A DNA stretch of 64,000 nt from assembly GCA_964016885.1 (NCBI GenBank), contig OZ024740.1, positions 72,664,001 through 72,728,000 on the forward strand, read 5' to 3'. Source of the DNA: Eledone cirrhosa (lineage: Eukaryota). Below are positions 12,562-63,075 of the stretch, one piece after another (position 1 is the first letter of the stretch; each line of letters begins with the position of its first letter). The notes under the pieces were generated by a model. The model did no database searches. It worked only from the letters and a program-made list of their open reading frames with translations, and was not told where the DNA came from. Both the position numbers and the translations under genes were made by a program.

Positions 12562-12749
12562 GTTATATAGTTATACTTGGGGAGAGTCATATTTGTGTAA
12601 TATTGCCAGAATTAATAACAGAACACACTCACTGTTTGGTTGGTTTTCGCTTTTCGCTTCTGTGTCTTTTATATCGGTAATCTAATTTATTCGGACCTCA
12701 ATGTTGCCATTGACTGACCAACGGTCAAAAATAATACAGATACATATAT

Positions 12750-12803
12750 ATAGTTTATCAAAGTTCTTTCGTTGCACATCTGCAACATCGTCAGTGGTGC
12801 TAT
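12750..12803 (-). ncRNA. Mirror copy of the PLE hammerhead motif
   Basis: Exact reverse complement of 15947-16000. Confidence 0.55.
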
Positions 12804-13059
12804 TGTTTCCTCCCGTTGCATTGTATTTTCTACGCCATCTTTATTTAGTCTGTTTATATATTTATTTATTTGTTTATTTTATTTTGTCTTCTTTGCGCAT
12901 GCGTTTGCGTGTGTGTATAGTGTTTTGTTTGATGTGTGTTCGTGATTGGGTGACTGTGTATTGGTTAATGTATTCTATCTTTACTAGTGTGCGTTTATAT
13001 GTGTTTGTTGTTATTATGCTTGTGTATGTATTTATTTATTTATTTATCTATTTATTTAT

Positions 13060-13982
13060 TTAGACTTCTCTTAGGACAGTGTTGTTTGTTTGGGTGTTGT
13101 TGTTATTCCATTCATTCTTTCTGTTTAGCCTTGGCCTTCTAAGTTCTATTTCACTGGCCTCTCTAATTTGCCTATCTGCTGGGTCATTTCTATGTTTAGA
13201 TATTATTCTAATTTCTATATTGTCTATGTTACCGTCGTGTTGTCTGGCATGTTCGTATAGTACTGAACCGTTTTTTCGTCCTTTTAGTTCCCCCCAGTGT
13301 TGGTCTATCCTTTCACCTATGCTACGAGCTGTCTCGCCTATGTATGTTGTTGTCATGTTTCTGCAAGTACCCTCTGTACATCTTATGCTATAGACTACGT
13401 TTCTAGTTTTACAGTTTATCCGGGGGTTTACCTTACATATGATACATTTCCTATTAGTACAGTGGGTTTTTTTAAAAGGGTAGGTTTTGCTGATCAGGGA
13501 TTTTATGGTGGTTCCTGGCTTTTCTACCACCTTAATCTTTAAGTGGGTCTTTCTCAGGGCCTTTCTACACTGGTTAGCTAATTTCCCTCCAGGGGTAGCG
13601 TCCACAAACATGACACTCTGGTATCTCTGGTTGTCGTACCATGAGGTGGCTTTCCCTATCTTATGTCTAGCCCTATCTAAGCTATTCCATGATTTTCTGT
13701 ATAATGGGCAAATTTCTTTCATGTCCAGTTCTATGAGGGTCTTATACTTCTCCATGGCACCTTCGTATACTCTGACTCTGTCTCTTTGGTTGTAGCCAGA
13801 GAACTGCATGCGGTTGATGAAGTGTTGGATGTGTCCTTCCATTTCTGTTGGGTCGCACATGCGGGACACATTCTTCATCACTCGTACCAAATCTGCGATC
13901 AGAATATTAAACTTAGCACTACTGGACATTGCTGAGTTTTTGAGTATCAGGTATTTGGAGGCCATGGGTTTAGCATAGTGTG
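13060..13982 (-). pseudogene. Inverted duplicate of the PLE RT thumb and GIY-YIG region; open frame of 301 aa from an internal Met
   Basis: Near-identical to the plus-strand copy, with TGC (Cys) where that copy has TGA. Confidence 0.9.
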
Positions 13983-15690
13983 GAACAGGAACCTATCCAA
14001 CTGCATAATAGGCAGCATGGATGTGGTATCAATGTATCCATCCATTAACATTGATTTTGCTGTGGAAAAATGTGTGGAGATGATAATTGAGAGTGAGGTG
14101 GAGTTCTGCGACGTCGACACAGACGAACTGGGCCTCCTATTTAGACTTACCTACGACACTGACTACCTAGACAGCCATGACCTTAGACGTTTCTGCCCCA
14201 GTAGACCCATAAGAGGTAGACCCCCCCCCACCATAACCTCAATGGCTAAAAAGACTCCCATGGGAAGGTGGATTGGATGGACCAGAGCTATACGGACCCC
14301 CCAAAACAATGATCAGGTAAGAAAAATGGTCGCACATGCAATAGGGGCTAGTATCAAAACTACCCTAAAGGGCCACATATTCAAGTTCAACGAGAAGATC
14401 TACACCCAAAATGAGGGAGGAGCCATTGGCGTCAGCATAGCTGGTGATGTTGCCAACCTTTTTATGGTATGGTGGGAAAGGAGACTTAAAGATCTCCTTA
14501 ATGAGAGCTCCATAGACCTCGTCATGTACTCTCGTTATGTAGACGATATCAATATAGTTATAAGAACATCCTCACAAGAGAGCACTAACAAGTTTGATTT
14601 AGAACGTAGCACAATGGAAAGCATCCAGCAGATAGCTAATTCCATACACCAGAGTATAACTGTAACTATCGACTACCCTTCCAAACACCCTAACAGTAGA
14701 CTACCTGTATTAGACACGGAACTCTGGATTAACACTATAGACGAGAGAGCCCAAATTCTCCACTCACACTATGCTAAACCCATGGCCTCCAAATACCTGA
14801 TACTCAAAAACTCAGCAATGTCCAGTAGTGCTAAGTTTAATATTCTGATCGCAGATTTGGTACGAGTGATGAAGAATGTGTCCCGCATGTACGACCCAAC
14901 AGAAATGGAAAGACACATCCAACACTTCATCAACCGCATGCAGTTCTCTGGCTACAACCAAAGAGACAGAGTCAGAGTATACGAAGGAGCCATGGAGAAG
15001 TATAAGACCCTCATAGAACTGGACATAAAAGGAATTTGCCCATTATACAGGAGCAAATCATGGAATAGCTTAGATAGGGCTAGACATAAGATAGGGAAAG
15101 CCACCTCATGGTGCGACAACCAGAGATACCAGAGTGTCATGTTTGTGGACGCTACCCCTGGAGGGAAATTAGCTAACCAGTGTAGAAAGGCCCTGAGAAA
15201 GACCCACTTAAAGATTAAGGTGGTAGAAAAGCCAGGAACCACCATAAAATCCCTGATCAGCAAAACCTACCCGTTTAAGAAAACCCACTGTACTAATAGG
15301 AAATGTATCATATGTAAGGTAAACCCCCGGATAAACTGTAAATCTAGAAATGTAGTCTATAGCATAAGATGTACAGAGGGTACTTGAAGAAACATGACAA
15401 CAACATACATAGGCGAGACAGCTCGTAGCATAGGTGAAAGGATAGACCAACACTGGGGGGAACTAAAAGGACGAAAAAACGGTTCAGTACTATACGAACA
15501 TGCCAGACAACACGACGGTAACATAGACAATATAGAAATTAGAATAATATCTAAACATAGAAATGACCCAGCAGATAGGCAAATCAGAGAGGCCAGTGAA
15601 ATAGAACTTAGAAGGCCAAGGCTAAACAGAAAGAATGAATGGAATAACAACAACACCCAAACAAACAACACTGTCCTAAGAGAAGTCTAA
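13978..15690 (+). pseudogene. PLE reverse transcriptase plus C-terminal GIY-YIG endonuclease; 5'-truncated, with one in-frame TGA at 15385-15387
   Basis: RT motifs GSMDVVSMYPSI, YTQNEGGAIGVSIAGDVANLFM, RYVDD and LPVLD; Cys-rich linker HCTNRKCIIC; VVYSIRC...YIGETAR...R..QH...H...H...E...LN. The linker FVDATPGGKLA...IKVVEKPG resembles the Nematis clade (recalled, not searched). Confidence 0.93.
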
Positions 15691-15946
15691 ATAAATAAAT
15701 AGATAAATAAATAAATAAATACATACACAAGCATAATAACAACAAACACATATAAACACACACTAGTAAAGATAGAATACATTAACCAATACACAGTCAC
15801 CCAATCACGAACACACATCAAACAAAACACTATACACACACGCAAACGCATGCGCAAAGAAGACAAAATAAAATAAACAAATAAATAAATATATAAACAG
15901 ACTAAATAAAGATGGCGTAGAAAATACAATGCAACGGGAGGAAACA

Positions 15947-16000
15947 ATAGCACCACTGACGATGTTGCAGATGTGCAACGAAAGAACTTTGATAAACTAT
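15947..16000 (+). ncRNA. Minimal type-I hammerhead ribozyme motif in the PLE 3' UTR/pLTR
   Basis: CTGACGA-t-GTTGCA(gatg)TGCAAC-GAAA-GAACTTT. Stem II is perfect; stems I and III are weak. Confidence 0.55.
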
Positions 16001-61067: not shown

Positions 61068-61134
61068 CATATATATATATATATATATATATATATATAT
61101 ATATATATATATATATATATATATATATATATAT

Positions 61135-61320
61135 ATGAGATTCTACAGGACTAGAACTGTTTCATTCTTTAGAAATCATCAGGAATCTGATTCCTGATGA
61201 TTTCTAAAGAATGAAACAGTTCTAGTCCTGTAGAATCTCATCTATATTAAAACTTTTATACTCTGCAATGTATTGAGTACCTTACTTACTGTGGTTACCT
61301 CCGATTCAGCCCGGAATAAC
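61135..61320. mobile_element. Element starting with a perfect 107-bp palindrome of two divergent hammerheads
   Basis: 61135-61187 is the reverse complement of 61189-61241. Core GATTC-CTGATGA...GAAACAG..CTGTA-GAATC; flanked by (TA)n. Confidence 0.85.
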
Positions 61321-61379
61321 GTATATATATATATATATATATACATTTTTGGGGGACATCCTGTATAAATATATATATG

Positions 61380-61480
61380 CAGGGTGTACCCCAAAAATAT
61401 ATACAGACTTTTACACCCTTCTAATAAATATTGCCTGTACAGGTAATCAAAGTGTGTATACATTTTTTGGGGACACCCTG
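61380..61480. mobile_element. Tc1/mariner-type MITE of about 100 bp, preceded by a solo TIR
   Basis: TIRs CAGGGTGTACCCCAAAAA / TTTTTTGGGGACACCCTG. Confidence 0.75.
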
Positions 61481-62889
61481 CATATATATAGTACTCTTTA
61501 TTCTGGCTAAGTGATGAGTCTGTTACTCTAGAGTTTCACCTGTGTACAAGTCTCGACACTAATCCACAATAAAGAATATTATTAAAGCCCACTTCGCTAT
61601 TGAGTACTAATTTACTCATTCTCGCAACCATCAACATCATACGGATATATATATATATATATATATATATATATATATATATATATATATATATATACAA
61701 AATTAAGATAGATCAAAGTGAATTTAATCTAAATTAAAATTATGGGTGTCGTGCCAGAAAGGCATGCACCATATCACCCGTAAAATAAGCTCCAATATTC
61801 TAATGAATAGGTCCGAGCATTTTATATATATATATATAGGAAAATGTTTAACCCCCACGGCAGAGTTCAAGCCGTTTCGACCGCTATTTCTGGACTCCAG
61901 AAATCGTTCTCTCTCTCTCTCTCTCTCTCTCTCTCTCTCTCTCTCTCTCTCTCTCTCTCTCTCTCTCTCTCTCTCTCTCTCTCTCTCTCTCTCTCTCTCT
62001 ATATATATATATATATATATATATATATATATATATATATAGTGCAAATTTGGACGGGAACGAAACAGAGAGGTAGACAAATATCATATATATATATATA
62101 CATATGATATTAGGATTGGTGCTCTGAATGTATGTATAGTATATTTGGCAATATACCGTATGTTTAATTTAAAACATTTAGAAGACAATACGCTATAAGT
62201 TTTAAAGTAGTGACTATGTCACTTACTTCTTTTCGGCGAAAGAAGAGAGAGAAGCTGACAAGAGCACCAATCACGCTGGGTGGCGTTCATCAGAGCCACT
62301 CACTCCCCTGCTTCCGCTGAAAATTATAGAAGCTGGATTCTTATAGAATTCCAGTAATAATCATATATATATATATATATATATATATATATATATATAT
62401 ATATATATATATATATATATATATATATATATATATAACGAAGGAAATGTGGTAAGGAACCAGGTGGACCATAACGCACCAAAGTACTCAATACTTGAGG
62501 TAGTAGAGTGGGTAATAGGAACCAGTAAGACCCCGACAGTTGAGCTCAAGCCGTTTCGACGGCTAATTCTGGACAGAGTTAGATTGAGTCCAGAATTAGC
62601 CGTCGAAACGGCTTGAGCTCAGCTGTCGGGGTCTTACTGGTTCCTATATATATATATATATATATATATATATATATATATATATATATATATATATATA
62701 TATATATATATATATATATATATATATAACGAAGGAAGTGTGCTAAAGAACCAGATGGACCATAACGCATCAGAGTACTCAATACTTAGGGTAGTAGAGT
62801 GTGTAATATATATGTATATATGTGTGTGTGCGTTGTAGTAAAAGTTTGGTAGAAATATCCAAGGGTAAGAGTTGCTCAGACCATAGAAC

Positions 62890-63075
62890 GAGTTAAGTAT
62901 AATTAATCAAAACAGTGACATACACAGGTACTTAAGTTTCGTTGGGTTATGCACCCCAACTCATTCAGTCTGTTATAAAAACAAAGATATATCAGGCTGA
63001 ATGAGTTGGGGTGCATAACCCAAGGAAACTTAAGTACCTGTATATGTCACTGTTGTAATTAATTATACTTAACTC
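62890..63075. mobile_element. 186-bp palindromic element with twin divergent hammerheads (CUGAAUGA core variant)
   Basis: Arms of about 83 bp around a spacer of about 20 nt. CAGG-CTGAATGA-GTTGGG(gtgcataa)CCCAA(C/G)-GAAA-CTTAAG-TA-CCTG. Confidence 0.8.

Follow-up and report, generated by a model that had tools for sequence, protein, structure and literature searches.

The palindromic elements of this 64,000-nt stretch of the Eledone cirrhosa genome (the window) are short back-to-back ends, found by the tens of thousands in TA repeats, that were left by several known Penelope-like elements (PLEs); they are Penelope stumps, not a new ribozyme parasite. Our preferred reading, to which we give a probability of roughly two in three, is that they represent head-to-head pLTR ends of several protein-coding Penelope-like families, joined from two target-primed reverse transcriptions.

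Self-BLAST recovered all five inverted duplications and the RT/GIY-YIG element that a sequence-only reading had proposed for the window, with the divergent orientation it had described and with all of them ending in or near TA tracts. The coordinates given there left out a tail of 60-95 nt that one of the two arms carries in every element (A 20154-20251; B 50702-50780; C, up to 61322; D, beginning at 62834; E, beginning at 62438), the family B tail being separated from its arm by a later insertion. The elements had also been called unrelated in sequence, which does not hold for B and D: these are homologous (local score 119 versus a maximum of 46 in 300 shuffles). Among three motifs listed as solo, that at 52027 is the end of a long arm in a sixth head-to-head pair (51956-53290) and that at 53438 belongs to a 540-nt family C copy, while the one at 51661 does sit in a 550-nt repeat copy without a partner. 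The layout of the family C palindrome is not a long-read artefact, since its centre is spanned by short-read contigs from three public runs. The palindromes and their relatives in the window are as follows:

20154..20370, minus strand: tailed arm of family A with its core at 20352 and its tail at 20154-20251; cleavage is predicted after 20308
20371..21062, plus strand: tail-less arm of family A (Hydra-type PLE 3' UTR) with its core at 20962; cleavage is predicted after 21006
20840, in the tail-less arm 20371..21062 (plus strand): family A 5' wall, at the A of TCATAT
50702..50950, minus strand: family B tailed arm; core 50934, interrupted by another repeat at about 50779-50861
50963..51052, plus strand: tail-less arm of family B with a U3-A8 core (50979); stem I is disrupted in the window copy
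51409..51957, plus strand: unpaired 550-nt repeat end with a hammerhead; core 51666, long stem II
51956..52594, minus strand: family F long arm; U3-A8 core 52060, TATAAAA 52132, predicted start A 52102
52852..53290, plus strand: family F inverted arm, cut off before the hammerhead by later insertions
53357..53895, minus strand: longer family C copy; core 53482, TATAAATA at 53519, predicted start A 53488
60930..61061, minus strand: unpaired tailed family E end; 3' half of the hammerhead only
61137..61188, minus strand: family C short arm; core 61182
61189..61322, plus strand: family C tailed arm; core 61194, begins at the predicted start site
61851-61896, 62729-62808 and 63080-63145: additional family E pieces
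62438..62574, minus strand: family E tailed arm; begins inside loop II of the parent's U3-A8 hammerhead
62583..62647, plus strand: family E short arm; begins at the predicted initiator
62834..62981, minus strand: tailed arm of family D with an 8-nt core (62968); the first pair of stem I is disrupted
62987..63083, plus strand: family D second arm; 8-nt core at 62997

Four of the five palindrome families (A, B, D and E) run elsewhere in the genome into their own RT and GIY-YIG ORF, with RT and then a C-terminal GIY-YIG domain upstream of the arm on the same strand. The window elements had been interpreted as separate non-autonomous parasites copying a co-resident element. That interpretation is not supported, since in A, B, D and E the arms form the 3' termini of Penelope-like families with ORFs of their own. 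The attribution of the pieces to Penelope RT/endonuclease was right, as was the preference for TA tracts. Parent domains were identified by reading the motifs YRDD and VxY..YIG directly; Pfam made no call on family E or A proteins. Family E has intact ORFs of 717-719 aa in a 3.54-kb tandem array (L460) and a full inverted-pLTR-ORF-pLTR copy (L307), a layout also present in family A (L310, L314). This partial tandem with an inverted 5' copy was seen in A and E and in none of B, C, D and F; in B (L272, L312) and D (L233, L311), RT, EN and arm follow in order on one strand. The Hydra clade is characterized by RWK, DKT, a CxCX5C linker, CxxC and CxH around E/N, and no CCHH (PMC8557442, section 11). 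The family E ORF contains RWR, DKT, CxCX5C, CxxC..E and CxH, and family A, read from broken copies, shows part of the set (RWK, CxCX5C, CxxC, CxH). Both thus carry Hydra-clade motifs, and by motifs rather than by a tree they would be assigned to that clade.

The ORF link of family C (10,639 tail hits) appears to be indirect. Neither a C-pLTR-ORF copy nor an ORF of its own was found in the genome loci searched; the search upstream led to a microsatellite and that beyond the tail to an unrelated repeat. One locus (L301) contains, in order, an EN, a 3' UTR with another hammerhead at its end, a TA tract and a family C unit; at two more (L303, L306), portions of this UTR are joined to family C. Family C units were also found joined to the ends of other PLE families.

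The window's own Penelope copy (family P) is a truncated member of another lineage and not the driver of the palindromes:

12578..13982, minus strand: inverted 5'-truncated arm with RT end, GIY-YIG endonuclease and 3' UTR/pLTR
13983..16172, plus strand: long arm with 5'-truncated RT-EN ORF, pLTR and hammerhead-like core 15956

This copy had been credited with the geometry of the palindromes, a hammerhead of its own and the role of mobilizing them. Its arms are divergent, but both hammerhead-like motifs (15956 plus, 12794 minus) have a broken stem I, and as a driver it is disqualified by its 5' truncation, a stop in the long-arm ORF (15385-15387) and a different linker motif. The CX4CxxC linker, present in the minus arm, and a CCHH motif are of the Neptune/Nematis type and stand in place of the Hydra-clade features; Pfam returned only RVT_1 for this family, below cut-off (E 8e-5). 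Both arms share a 14-nt deletion, which was absent from the 19 other copies read at the site.

Copy ends were mapped on the first 30 tail-pattern hits for families A, C, D and E and on 18 for F, samples that lean to young copies because they are the first contig hits with exact patterns. In every family the 3' ends fall at two fixed points, one short and one tailed, each at a UA of the RNA: +101/103 and +180 in E, +96/100 and +195-199 in A, +53-60 and +126 in C, and +71/74 and +133 in D. After exclusion of spurious TA-tract partners and one internal-repeat partner in C (L395), an adjacent inverted partner accompanied 22/30 copies in E, 18/30 in A, 15/30 in C and 16/30 in D. Palindromes usually have one end of each kind (22/23 E pairs joined a tailed and a short arm). 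The claim of consistently outward-pointing arms survived an orientation test, in which all 23 close E pairs were divergent and none tandem; one tandem pair occurred among the loci classified for six families. All 23 E junctions are distinct, and many junctions are near-perfect palindromes. Most copies measure 150-450 nt. Genome-wide counts for family E were 16,269 tailed ends and 16,057 short ones. The 5' half of the hammerhead was present in 2,960, such that about 9% of ends have the whole hammerhead, and mini copies outnumber long ones by about 10:1.

The 5' ends accumulate at a sharp wall in four families (A, C, E and F), and in three of these a TATA and initiator-like site lies at the wall; start sites are predicted here from such motifs. 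Counts of ends at -5 to +25 of the site versus the 31 nt just upstream were 24 versus 0 in E and 14 versus 1 in A (of 30 each), 13 versus 2 in C (of 30) and 9 versus 0 in F (of 18), with walls at +39 (E), -6 (C), -122 (A) and -42 (F) relative to the core; the walls of D and B could not be placed. No TATA+YCA site other than that at the wall occurs in 555 nt of the C reference or in 1,237 nt of the E reference, the E site having been noticed only after the ends were seen and its TATA-like box lying only 25 nt upstream. In F the wall is one of two adjacent TATA+YCA sites (3 in 639 nt), and in A there is a TCA without a TATA box. A TATA-less promoter is known from D. virilis Penelope (PMC2377424), and promoter and start site have been placed within the pLTR (PMC2377424; PMC8557442). 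The minis start at the predicted initiator, without the upstream TATA box. That many copies stop at a predicted start suggests that they are probably run-off products of the first part of the element's RNA. Other origins for the wall were considered and rejected: the hammerhead cut lies downstream of it in A, C, E and F; a splice acceptor suits C only, as E copies pass beyond the AG and A has none; and an RT stop at a hairpin does not match walls that, by inspection, are located on the 5' side of the stems or further out. A 5' wall at a predicted start site is possibly new, with no description found in the parts of PMC8557442, PMC3846280 and PMC2377424 covered here.

These patterns were probably produced when each nicked strand of a TA tract primed one reverse transcription of element RNA and the two cDNAs were joined head to head at their 5'-truncated ends during insertion. 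The two fixed 3' ends would then correspond to two internal RT start sites, which would also be present close to the 5' end of the mRNA, immediately downstream of the pLTR promoter. Reverse transcription primed at these sites would soon run off the template and yield short cDNAs, which may explain the sharp wall seen in the smallest copies. In vitro, nicking and extension take place on both strands, the tail lies between two internal RT starts, and the hammerhead is unnecessary for the reaction (PMC11167929). We lean, if only slightly, towards the further proposal of a "strong-stop" product, in which RT primes at two internal sites, one per nicked strand, and runs off to leave a mini-palindrome, so that the genomic DNA by itself would reveal, through the wall, where transcription of each family starts. 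As the predicted E start site lies inside the hammerhead, formation of that ribozyme would require read-through transcription from a copy upstream.

The hammerhead motifs themselves exceed chance, as the sequence-only reading had supposed: a relaxed type-I scan found 7 in the window at a score of at least 10, versus a mean of 0.12 and a maximum of 2 in 60 shuffles (strict scans miss real family motifs). A total of 234 hits fell into 31 sequence clusters. Rfam gave no hammerhead among the matches listed (150 of 153, E<=5), which were microsatellite and hairpin miRNA only, below gathering score. A type-I fold had been claimed for each arm; the scan called it on both arms of A (20352 minus, 20962 plus) and C (61182 minus, 61194 plus; stem II closed by U.U) and on one of D (62997 plus; 8-nt core, G.G closing pair), and made no call on either B arm, the left D arm or the Penelope-copy motifs (15956 plus, 12794 minus), in which inspection shows stem I broken beside the core. 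The conserved core with stems I-III is thus present in 5/8 arms of A-D, as well as in most family copies, and the complete fold is retained on both arms only in A and C; the family E twin lacks the 5' core, as had been described. Compensatory changes between the homologous D and B indicate covariation at paired positions: pair 3-8 is C-G in 25/31 D versus U-A in 14/16 B, and a stem III pair is U-A in 29/31 D versus G-C in 13/16 B, in rows chosen with a pattern that fixes part of stem II.

The alternative closest to our reading keeps the Penelope origin and makes the inverted arm by fold-back, whereby one cDNA or antisense template self-primes and the endonuclease trims the short arm; the wall could then still be the transcription start. 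Self-priming and endonuclease trimming of the tail have both been proposed (PMC3846280 and PMC8557442, respectively), and near-perfect palindromic junctions are frequent. Arms share subfamily type in 22/23 E pairs (32% expected) and a private deletion in family P, findings that fit one template copied twice and fold-back equally. We nevertheless consider fold-back unlikely. The tail-less arm reaches at least 10 nt further 5' in 6/15 A pairs and 3/19 E pairs (the reverse in 1 each) and is about 590 nt longer on that side in the window's A copy; such arms are not copies of a tailed first strand without extra steps, although the asymmetry could also arise from later deletions at palindrome centres. 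Fold-back alone does not account for pairs in which each arm has sequence absent from the other, a few pairs join different subfamilies (L105, with 13 differences in 118 nt, and L332), and two RT starts with extension of both strands have been seen in vitro (PMC11167929). Editing by ADAR was rejected as a source of arm differences in E, where an A>G excess (17 versus 3) is an artefact of the query's rare allele (2 of the first 100 genome hits; 2/77 arms found independently of the query); in P, 7 A/G among 13 substitutions are too few to decide.

What survives of the parasite idea is that short copies derive from a separate short transcript of solo or 3' pLTR promoters, running from the start site to slightly beyond the tail, and would be SINE-like, non-autonomous and re-copied in trans. 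The wall would suit any RNA starting at the pLTR promoter, and family C is abundant without an intact pLTR-ORF copy among those found and is joined to other PLE ends. This origin nonetheless seems quite improbable, given that minis begin at the initiator without the upstream TATA box, stop short of a conserved stretch located beyond the tail in full A and E copies, and share no junctions, and that the anole element RNA must reach past the RT start sites (PMC11167929). Still harder to sustain is the original proposal of palindromic two-ribozyme parasites, transcribed, cut from either strand and moving as units. It draws on the genuine hammerhead motifs that A and C carry in each arm, and on strict divergent orientation and TA targets. 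However, A, B, D and E have their own ORFs, junctions are unique, and minimal PLE hammerheads tested as single motifs showed no cleavage (PMC4209133). Each strand contains a single ribozyme in sense orientation, and pairing with the antisense copy is predicted to trap it in a hairpin (the arm-arm hairpin is computed to be more stable than the ribozyme fold by 66-80 kcal/mol), and about 91% of family E ends, minis included, lack the hammerhead 5' half. Because junctions differ per copy and the hairpin is predicted to outcompete the ribozyme fold, the palindromes are likely dead ends in which the ribozyme would be a passenger.

How PLEs construct tandem and inverted insertions has been named an open problem (PMC8557442). 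If the wall under our preferred reading is the transcription start, the commonest genomic product would be explained by two start sites, two strands and run-off, a rule that is testable in the known in vitro system. The same reading urges caution: the solo and opposite-strand hammerheads that animal genomes contain by the thousand may be mostly by-products rather than active ribozyme parasites. Perfect hairpins in the tens of thousands may also raise the animal's double-stranded RNA load. No statement of the run-off or strong-stop model, including for cephalopod or octopus cases or twin priming, was found in the open-access full text of main articles.

Published EN+ Penelope insertions (PMC8557442; PMC3846280; PMC2377424) share the head-to-head copy, one-end tail, partial tandems, (TA)n targets and pLTR promoter seen here, but in those accounts tails are 30-40 nt rather than 60-95 nt, and they differ from the present set, in which most copies are 150-450 nt with a 5' wall. 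Families A and E resemble the Hydra clade (Craig et al. 2021, PMC8557442, section 11) in motifs, hammerhead and TA insertion, whereas units are 3.5-4.1 kb here versus "generally <3 kb" in that section. Poseidon of Anolis carolinensis (Frangieh et al. 2024, PMC11167929) likewise has two internal RT starts, an AT-rich target and a dispensable hammerhead, and its main text does not treat the head-to-head join or run-off products. Metazoan PLE minimal type-I hammerheads (Cervera and de la Pena 2014, PMC4209133) likewise have a palindromic loop III and the U3-A8 core variant, and opposite-strand dual motifs 100-700 bp apart were ascribed there to truncated PLEs; unlike those, B and D have an 8-nt core, C3-G8 and U3-A8 switch between families, and the predicted E start site falls within loop II. 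Metazoan non-LTR retrozymes (Li et al. 2026, 10.64898/2026.07.22.740005; PMC7229834) are alike in their type-I hammerhead and pLTR relation, but they are ORF-less head-to-tail tandem arrays, whereas the palindromes are head-to-head ends of ORF-bearing elements, with no tandem units among 23 close E pairs and ORF-bearing parents for A, B, D and E.

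The observation made in the sequence-only reading is mostly real; self-comparison of the window, which belongs to contig C1 in an animal genome of 3.0 Gb, returned every inverted repeat that it had claimed. The repeats belong to hammerhead-bearing families A-F and to P, the RT/GIY-YIG Penelope copy:

12578-13982 and 14765-16172, inverted pair of family P
20252-20370 and 20944-21062, inverted pair of family A
50857-51056, palindrome of family B
52156-52594 and 52852-53290, inverted pair of family F, absent from that reading
61137-61239, palindrome of family C
62515-62647, palindrome of family E
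62883-63082, palindrome of family D

A scan permitting a C3-G8 or U3-A8 core plus one extra core base found seven hammerhead motifs scoring at least 10 in the window, against a mean of 0.12 and a maximum of 2 in 60 local shuffles. The fold had been claimed for every arm of families A-D; five of the eight passed (both A, both C and the right D arm), and both B arms and the left D arm did not. Stem I is broken beside the core in these three arms and in both P motifs, and family E has, as described, only a hammerhead 3' half in the window. An Rfam search of the window gave no hammerhead among the 150 of 153 matches listed. In three public runs, one of them from a second organism, short-read contigs span the centre of the C palindrome. 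Across loci L001-L369, 234 distinct hammerhead hits formed 31 sequence clusters, with loop III palindromic in most; in several families the stem II closing pair was U.U or C.A, not G-C.

Several other features share the window. Positions 53296-53350 are a fragment of another very abundant repeat, ending in TA tracts; a separate hammerhead, its stem III long, is present in longer copies of this repeat. Small palindromes without a hammerhead call lie at 61329-61495 and 50204-50243. A dispersed repeat family occupies 48447-48979, 50395-50581, 56098-56579 and 50779-50861, the last copy being inserted into the B tail with its AT-rich target duplicated. An ORF fragment at 31358-32072 on the minus strand, without a Pfam match, contains an RPDG..D motif, typical of the restriction-like endonuclease of non-LTR elements. 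Large satellite arrays (879-7655, 21170-31100, 35081-48102 and 56953-60212) have units of about 90-100 nt, 5 nt, 37 nt and 28 nt.

Families A, B, D and E are terminal pieces of Penelope-like elements (PLEs) that encode their own proteins. Seven of 20 family A loci found by their spacer continue for >1.3 kb into a GIY-YIG ORF, and full-length copies of A (L310, L314) and E (L307) are laid out as inverted pLTR, pLTR, ORF, pLTR; TATCTAGCTCC is common to L310 and L307, directly behind the tailed end. Family E also forms a tandem array (G000:C1:91473245-91493696) in which 3.54 kb units, one copy being inverted, contain intact ORFs of 717-719 aa, and its ORF motifs (RWR, DKT, YRDD, CxCX5C, YIG, CxxC, CxH) are marks of the Hydra clade (PMC8557442). 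In B (L272/L312) and D (L233/L311), RT, endonuclease (EN) and arm follow one another on one strand. These two families had been called sequence-unrelated, but comparison shows them to be homologous, with compensatory changes at pair 3-8 (C-G in 25/31 D copies, U-A in 14/16 B copies) and at one stem III pair (U-A in 29/31 D, G-C in 13/16 B).

The family C unit, ~540 nt long, lies behind a microsatellite. Locus L301 has an EN, then a 3' UTR ending in another hammerhead, then the C unit, and in L303 and L306 the unit is joined to parts of that UTR. No intact family C element was found among the loci examined, and family F and the 51666 repeat were not traced to a parent ORF. Family C units frequently adjoin RT/EN fragments from other PLE families in head-to-head orientation (L302, L303, L304, L072, L217), with the TA tract between them missing in L302 and L303, and these may be single insertions from two different RNAs. 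The P copy is a dead member of a different lineage with the same layout, since it is 5'-truncated, has a stop in its long arm and carries a CX4CxxC linker with CCHH.

Exact tail patterns, drawn without requiring a partner, matched family E 16,269 times genome-wide, family C 10,639 times, family A 1,868 times and the older family D 86 times. Of the first 30 matches per family, 22 in E (mini-palindromes), 15 in C, 18 in A and 16 in D had an inverted partner next to them, and in all four samples there were two fixed 3' ends, with the partner at the short site and the sampled arm extending 60-95 nt farther. Both end sites sit at TA, and the genomic TA tract comes next. Family E has 16,057 short ends, nearly equal in number to its tailed ends, whereas the hammerhead 5' half occurs in only 2,960 copies (~9% of all ends), each count, like that of tailed ends, being a lower bound from exact patterns. 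A set of 77 E arms that the first E query had not retrieved contained 23 close pairs; all had the divergent orientation claimed and 22 joined one tailed to one short arm; both arms were of the same subfamily type in 22/23 (32% expected), and all 23 junctions were distinct. The window's C junction recurs often among loci chosen by similarity to it, as expected because the query was built on it and the wall, the sharp pile-up of arm 5' ends, is narrow.

This wall lies at a start site predicted from sequence motifs, and it is the part worth following. Counting from the first hammerhead core base, 24/30 tailed E arms begin at +39 to +60 and none from +38 to -251; position +39 corresponds to the A in TCATTT, inside loop II and 25 nt behind TATTTAAA. 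Family C starts cluster at -8 to +2, with -6 the A of TCAGAT, 31 nt behind TATAAATA. Family A starts cluster at -120 to -127 (eight partners at -120 to -123), with -122 the A of TCATAT and no TATA box. Family F, checked last on 18 copies encountered incidentally, shows nine arm ends between -44 and -31 but nothing over -45 to -141; its TATAAAA starts at -72, and position -42 is the A in CCAGAT. TATA and initiator labels here follow the general consensus sequences. Ends falling in the 31 nt that begin at the site, compared with the 31 nt upstream, number 24 and 0 in E, where the site was spotted after the ends were known, 14 and 1 in A, and 13 and 2 in C and 9 and 0 in F, the two families that served as tests. 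A promoter and start site lie within the pLTR of D. virilis Penelope, TATA-less there (PMC2377424), and of Chlamys-3 (PMC8557442), and a TATA plus initiator-like site was noted in a rotifer pLTR (PMC3846280).

Two fixed 3' ends, a head-to-head join, a variable junction and the wall are direct observations. A tandem copy would place a pLTR and tail at both mRNA ends; priming at the downstream pLTR could then give long, randomly truncated arms and priming at the upstream one short cDNAs running off at the cap, and two cDNAs from opposite nicks would be joined at their ends. The protein of an anole element nicks and extends both strands, its RT has two internal start sites bounding the tail, and its hammerhead is dispensable (PMC11167929). 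We found no statement of the run-off model in the main texts of the open-access papers searched. Alternatively, the inverted arm could be generated by plain fold-back, as suggested in PMC3846280. The shared subfamily type of paired arms and a private 14-nt deletion common to both P arms are consistent with fold-back, or with one RNA used twice. In 6/15 A pairs (reverse in 1) and 3/19 E pairs (reverse in 1), however, the arm without a tail extends 10 nt or more beyond its tailed partner on the 5' side, and in the window's A copy it does so by ~590 nt, which argues against plain fold-back.

The palindromes are probably not active ribozyme units. A transcript across one has the antisense arm before the sense arm. 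For A, C and D, the hairpin between the arms is predicted to exceed the hammerhead fold in stability by 66-80 kcal/mol, whereas isolated arms are predicted to come within 0-4 kcal/mol of that fold. Single minimal PLE hammerheads gave no in vitro cleavage (PMC4209133). Since junctions are unique, spread as units is also opposed, and with A, B, D and E being ends of ORF-bearing PLEs, the suggested parasite system finds no support.

The layout of the palindromes is already known from earlier work. In 2014, Cervera and de la Pena (PMC4209133) described dual minimal hammerheads on opposite strands, 100-700 bp apart and probably from truncated PLEs, as well as the U3-A8 core variant, and Craig et al. 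(2021, PMC8557442) reported an inverted 5'-truncated copy, a one-sided tail and TA bias in PLEs. Retrozymes, as characterized by Li et al. (2026; see also PMC7229834), are head-to-tail arrays, whereas the pairs in the window are head to head.
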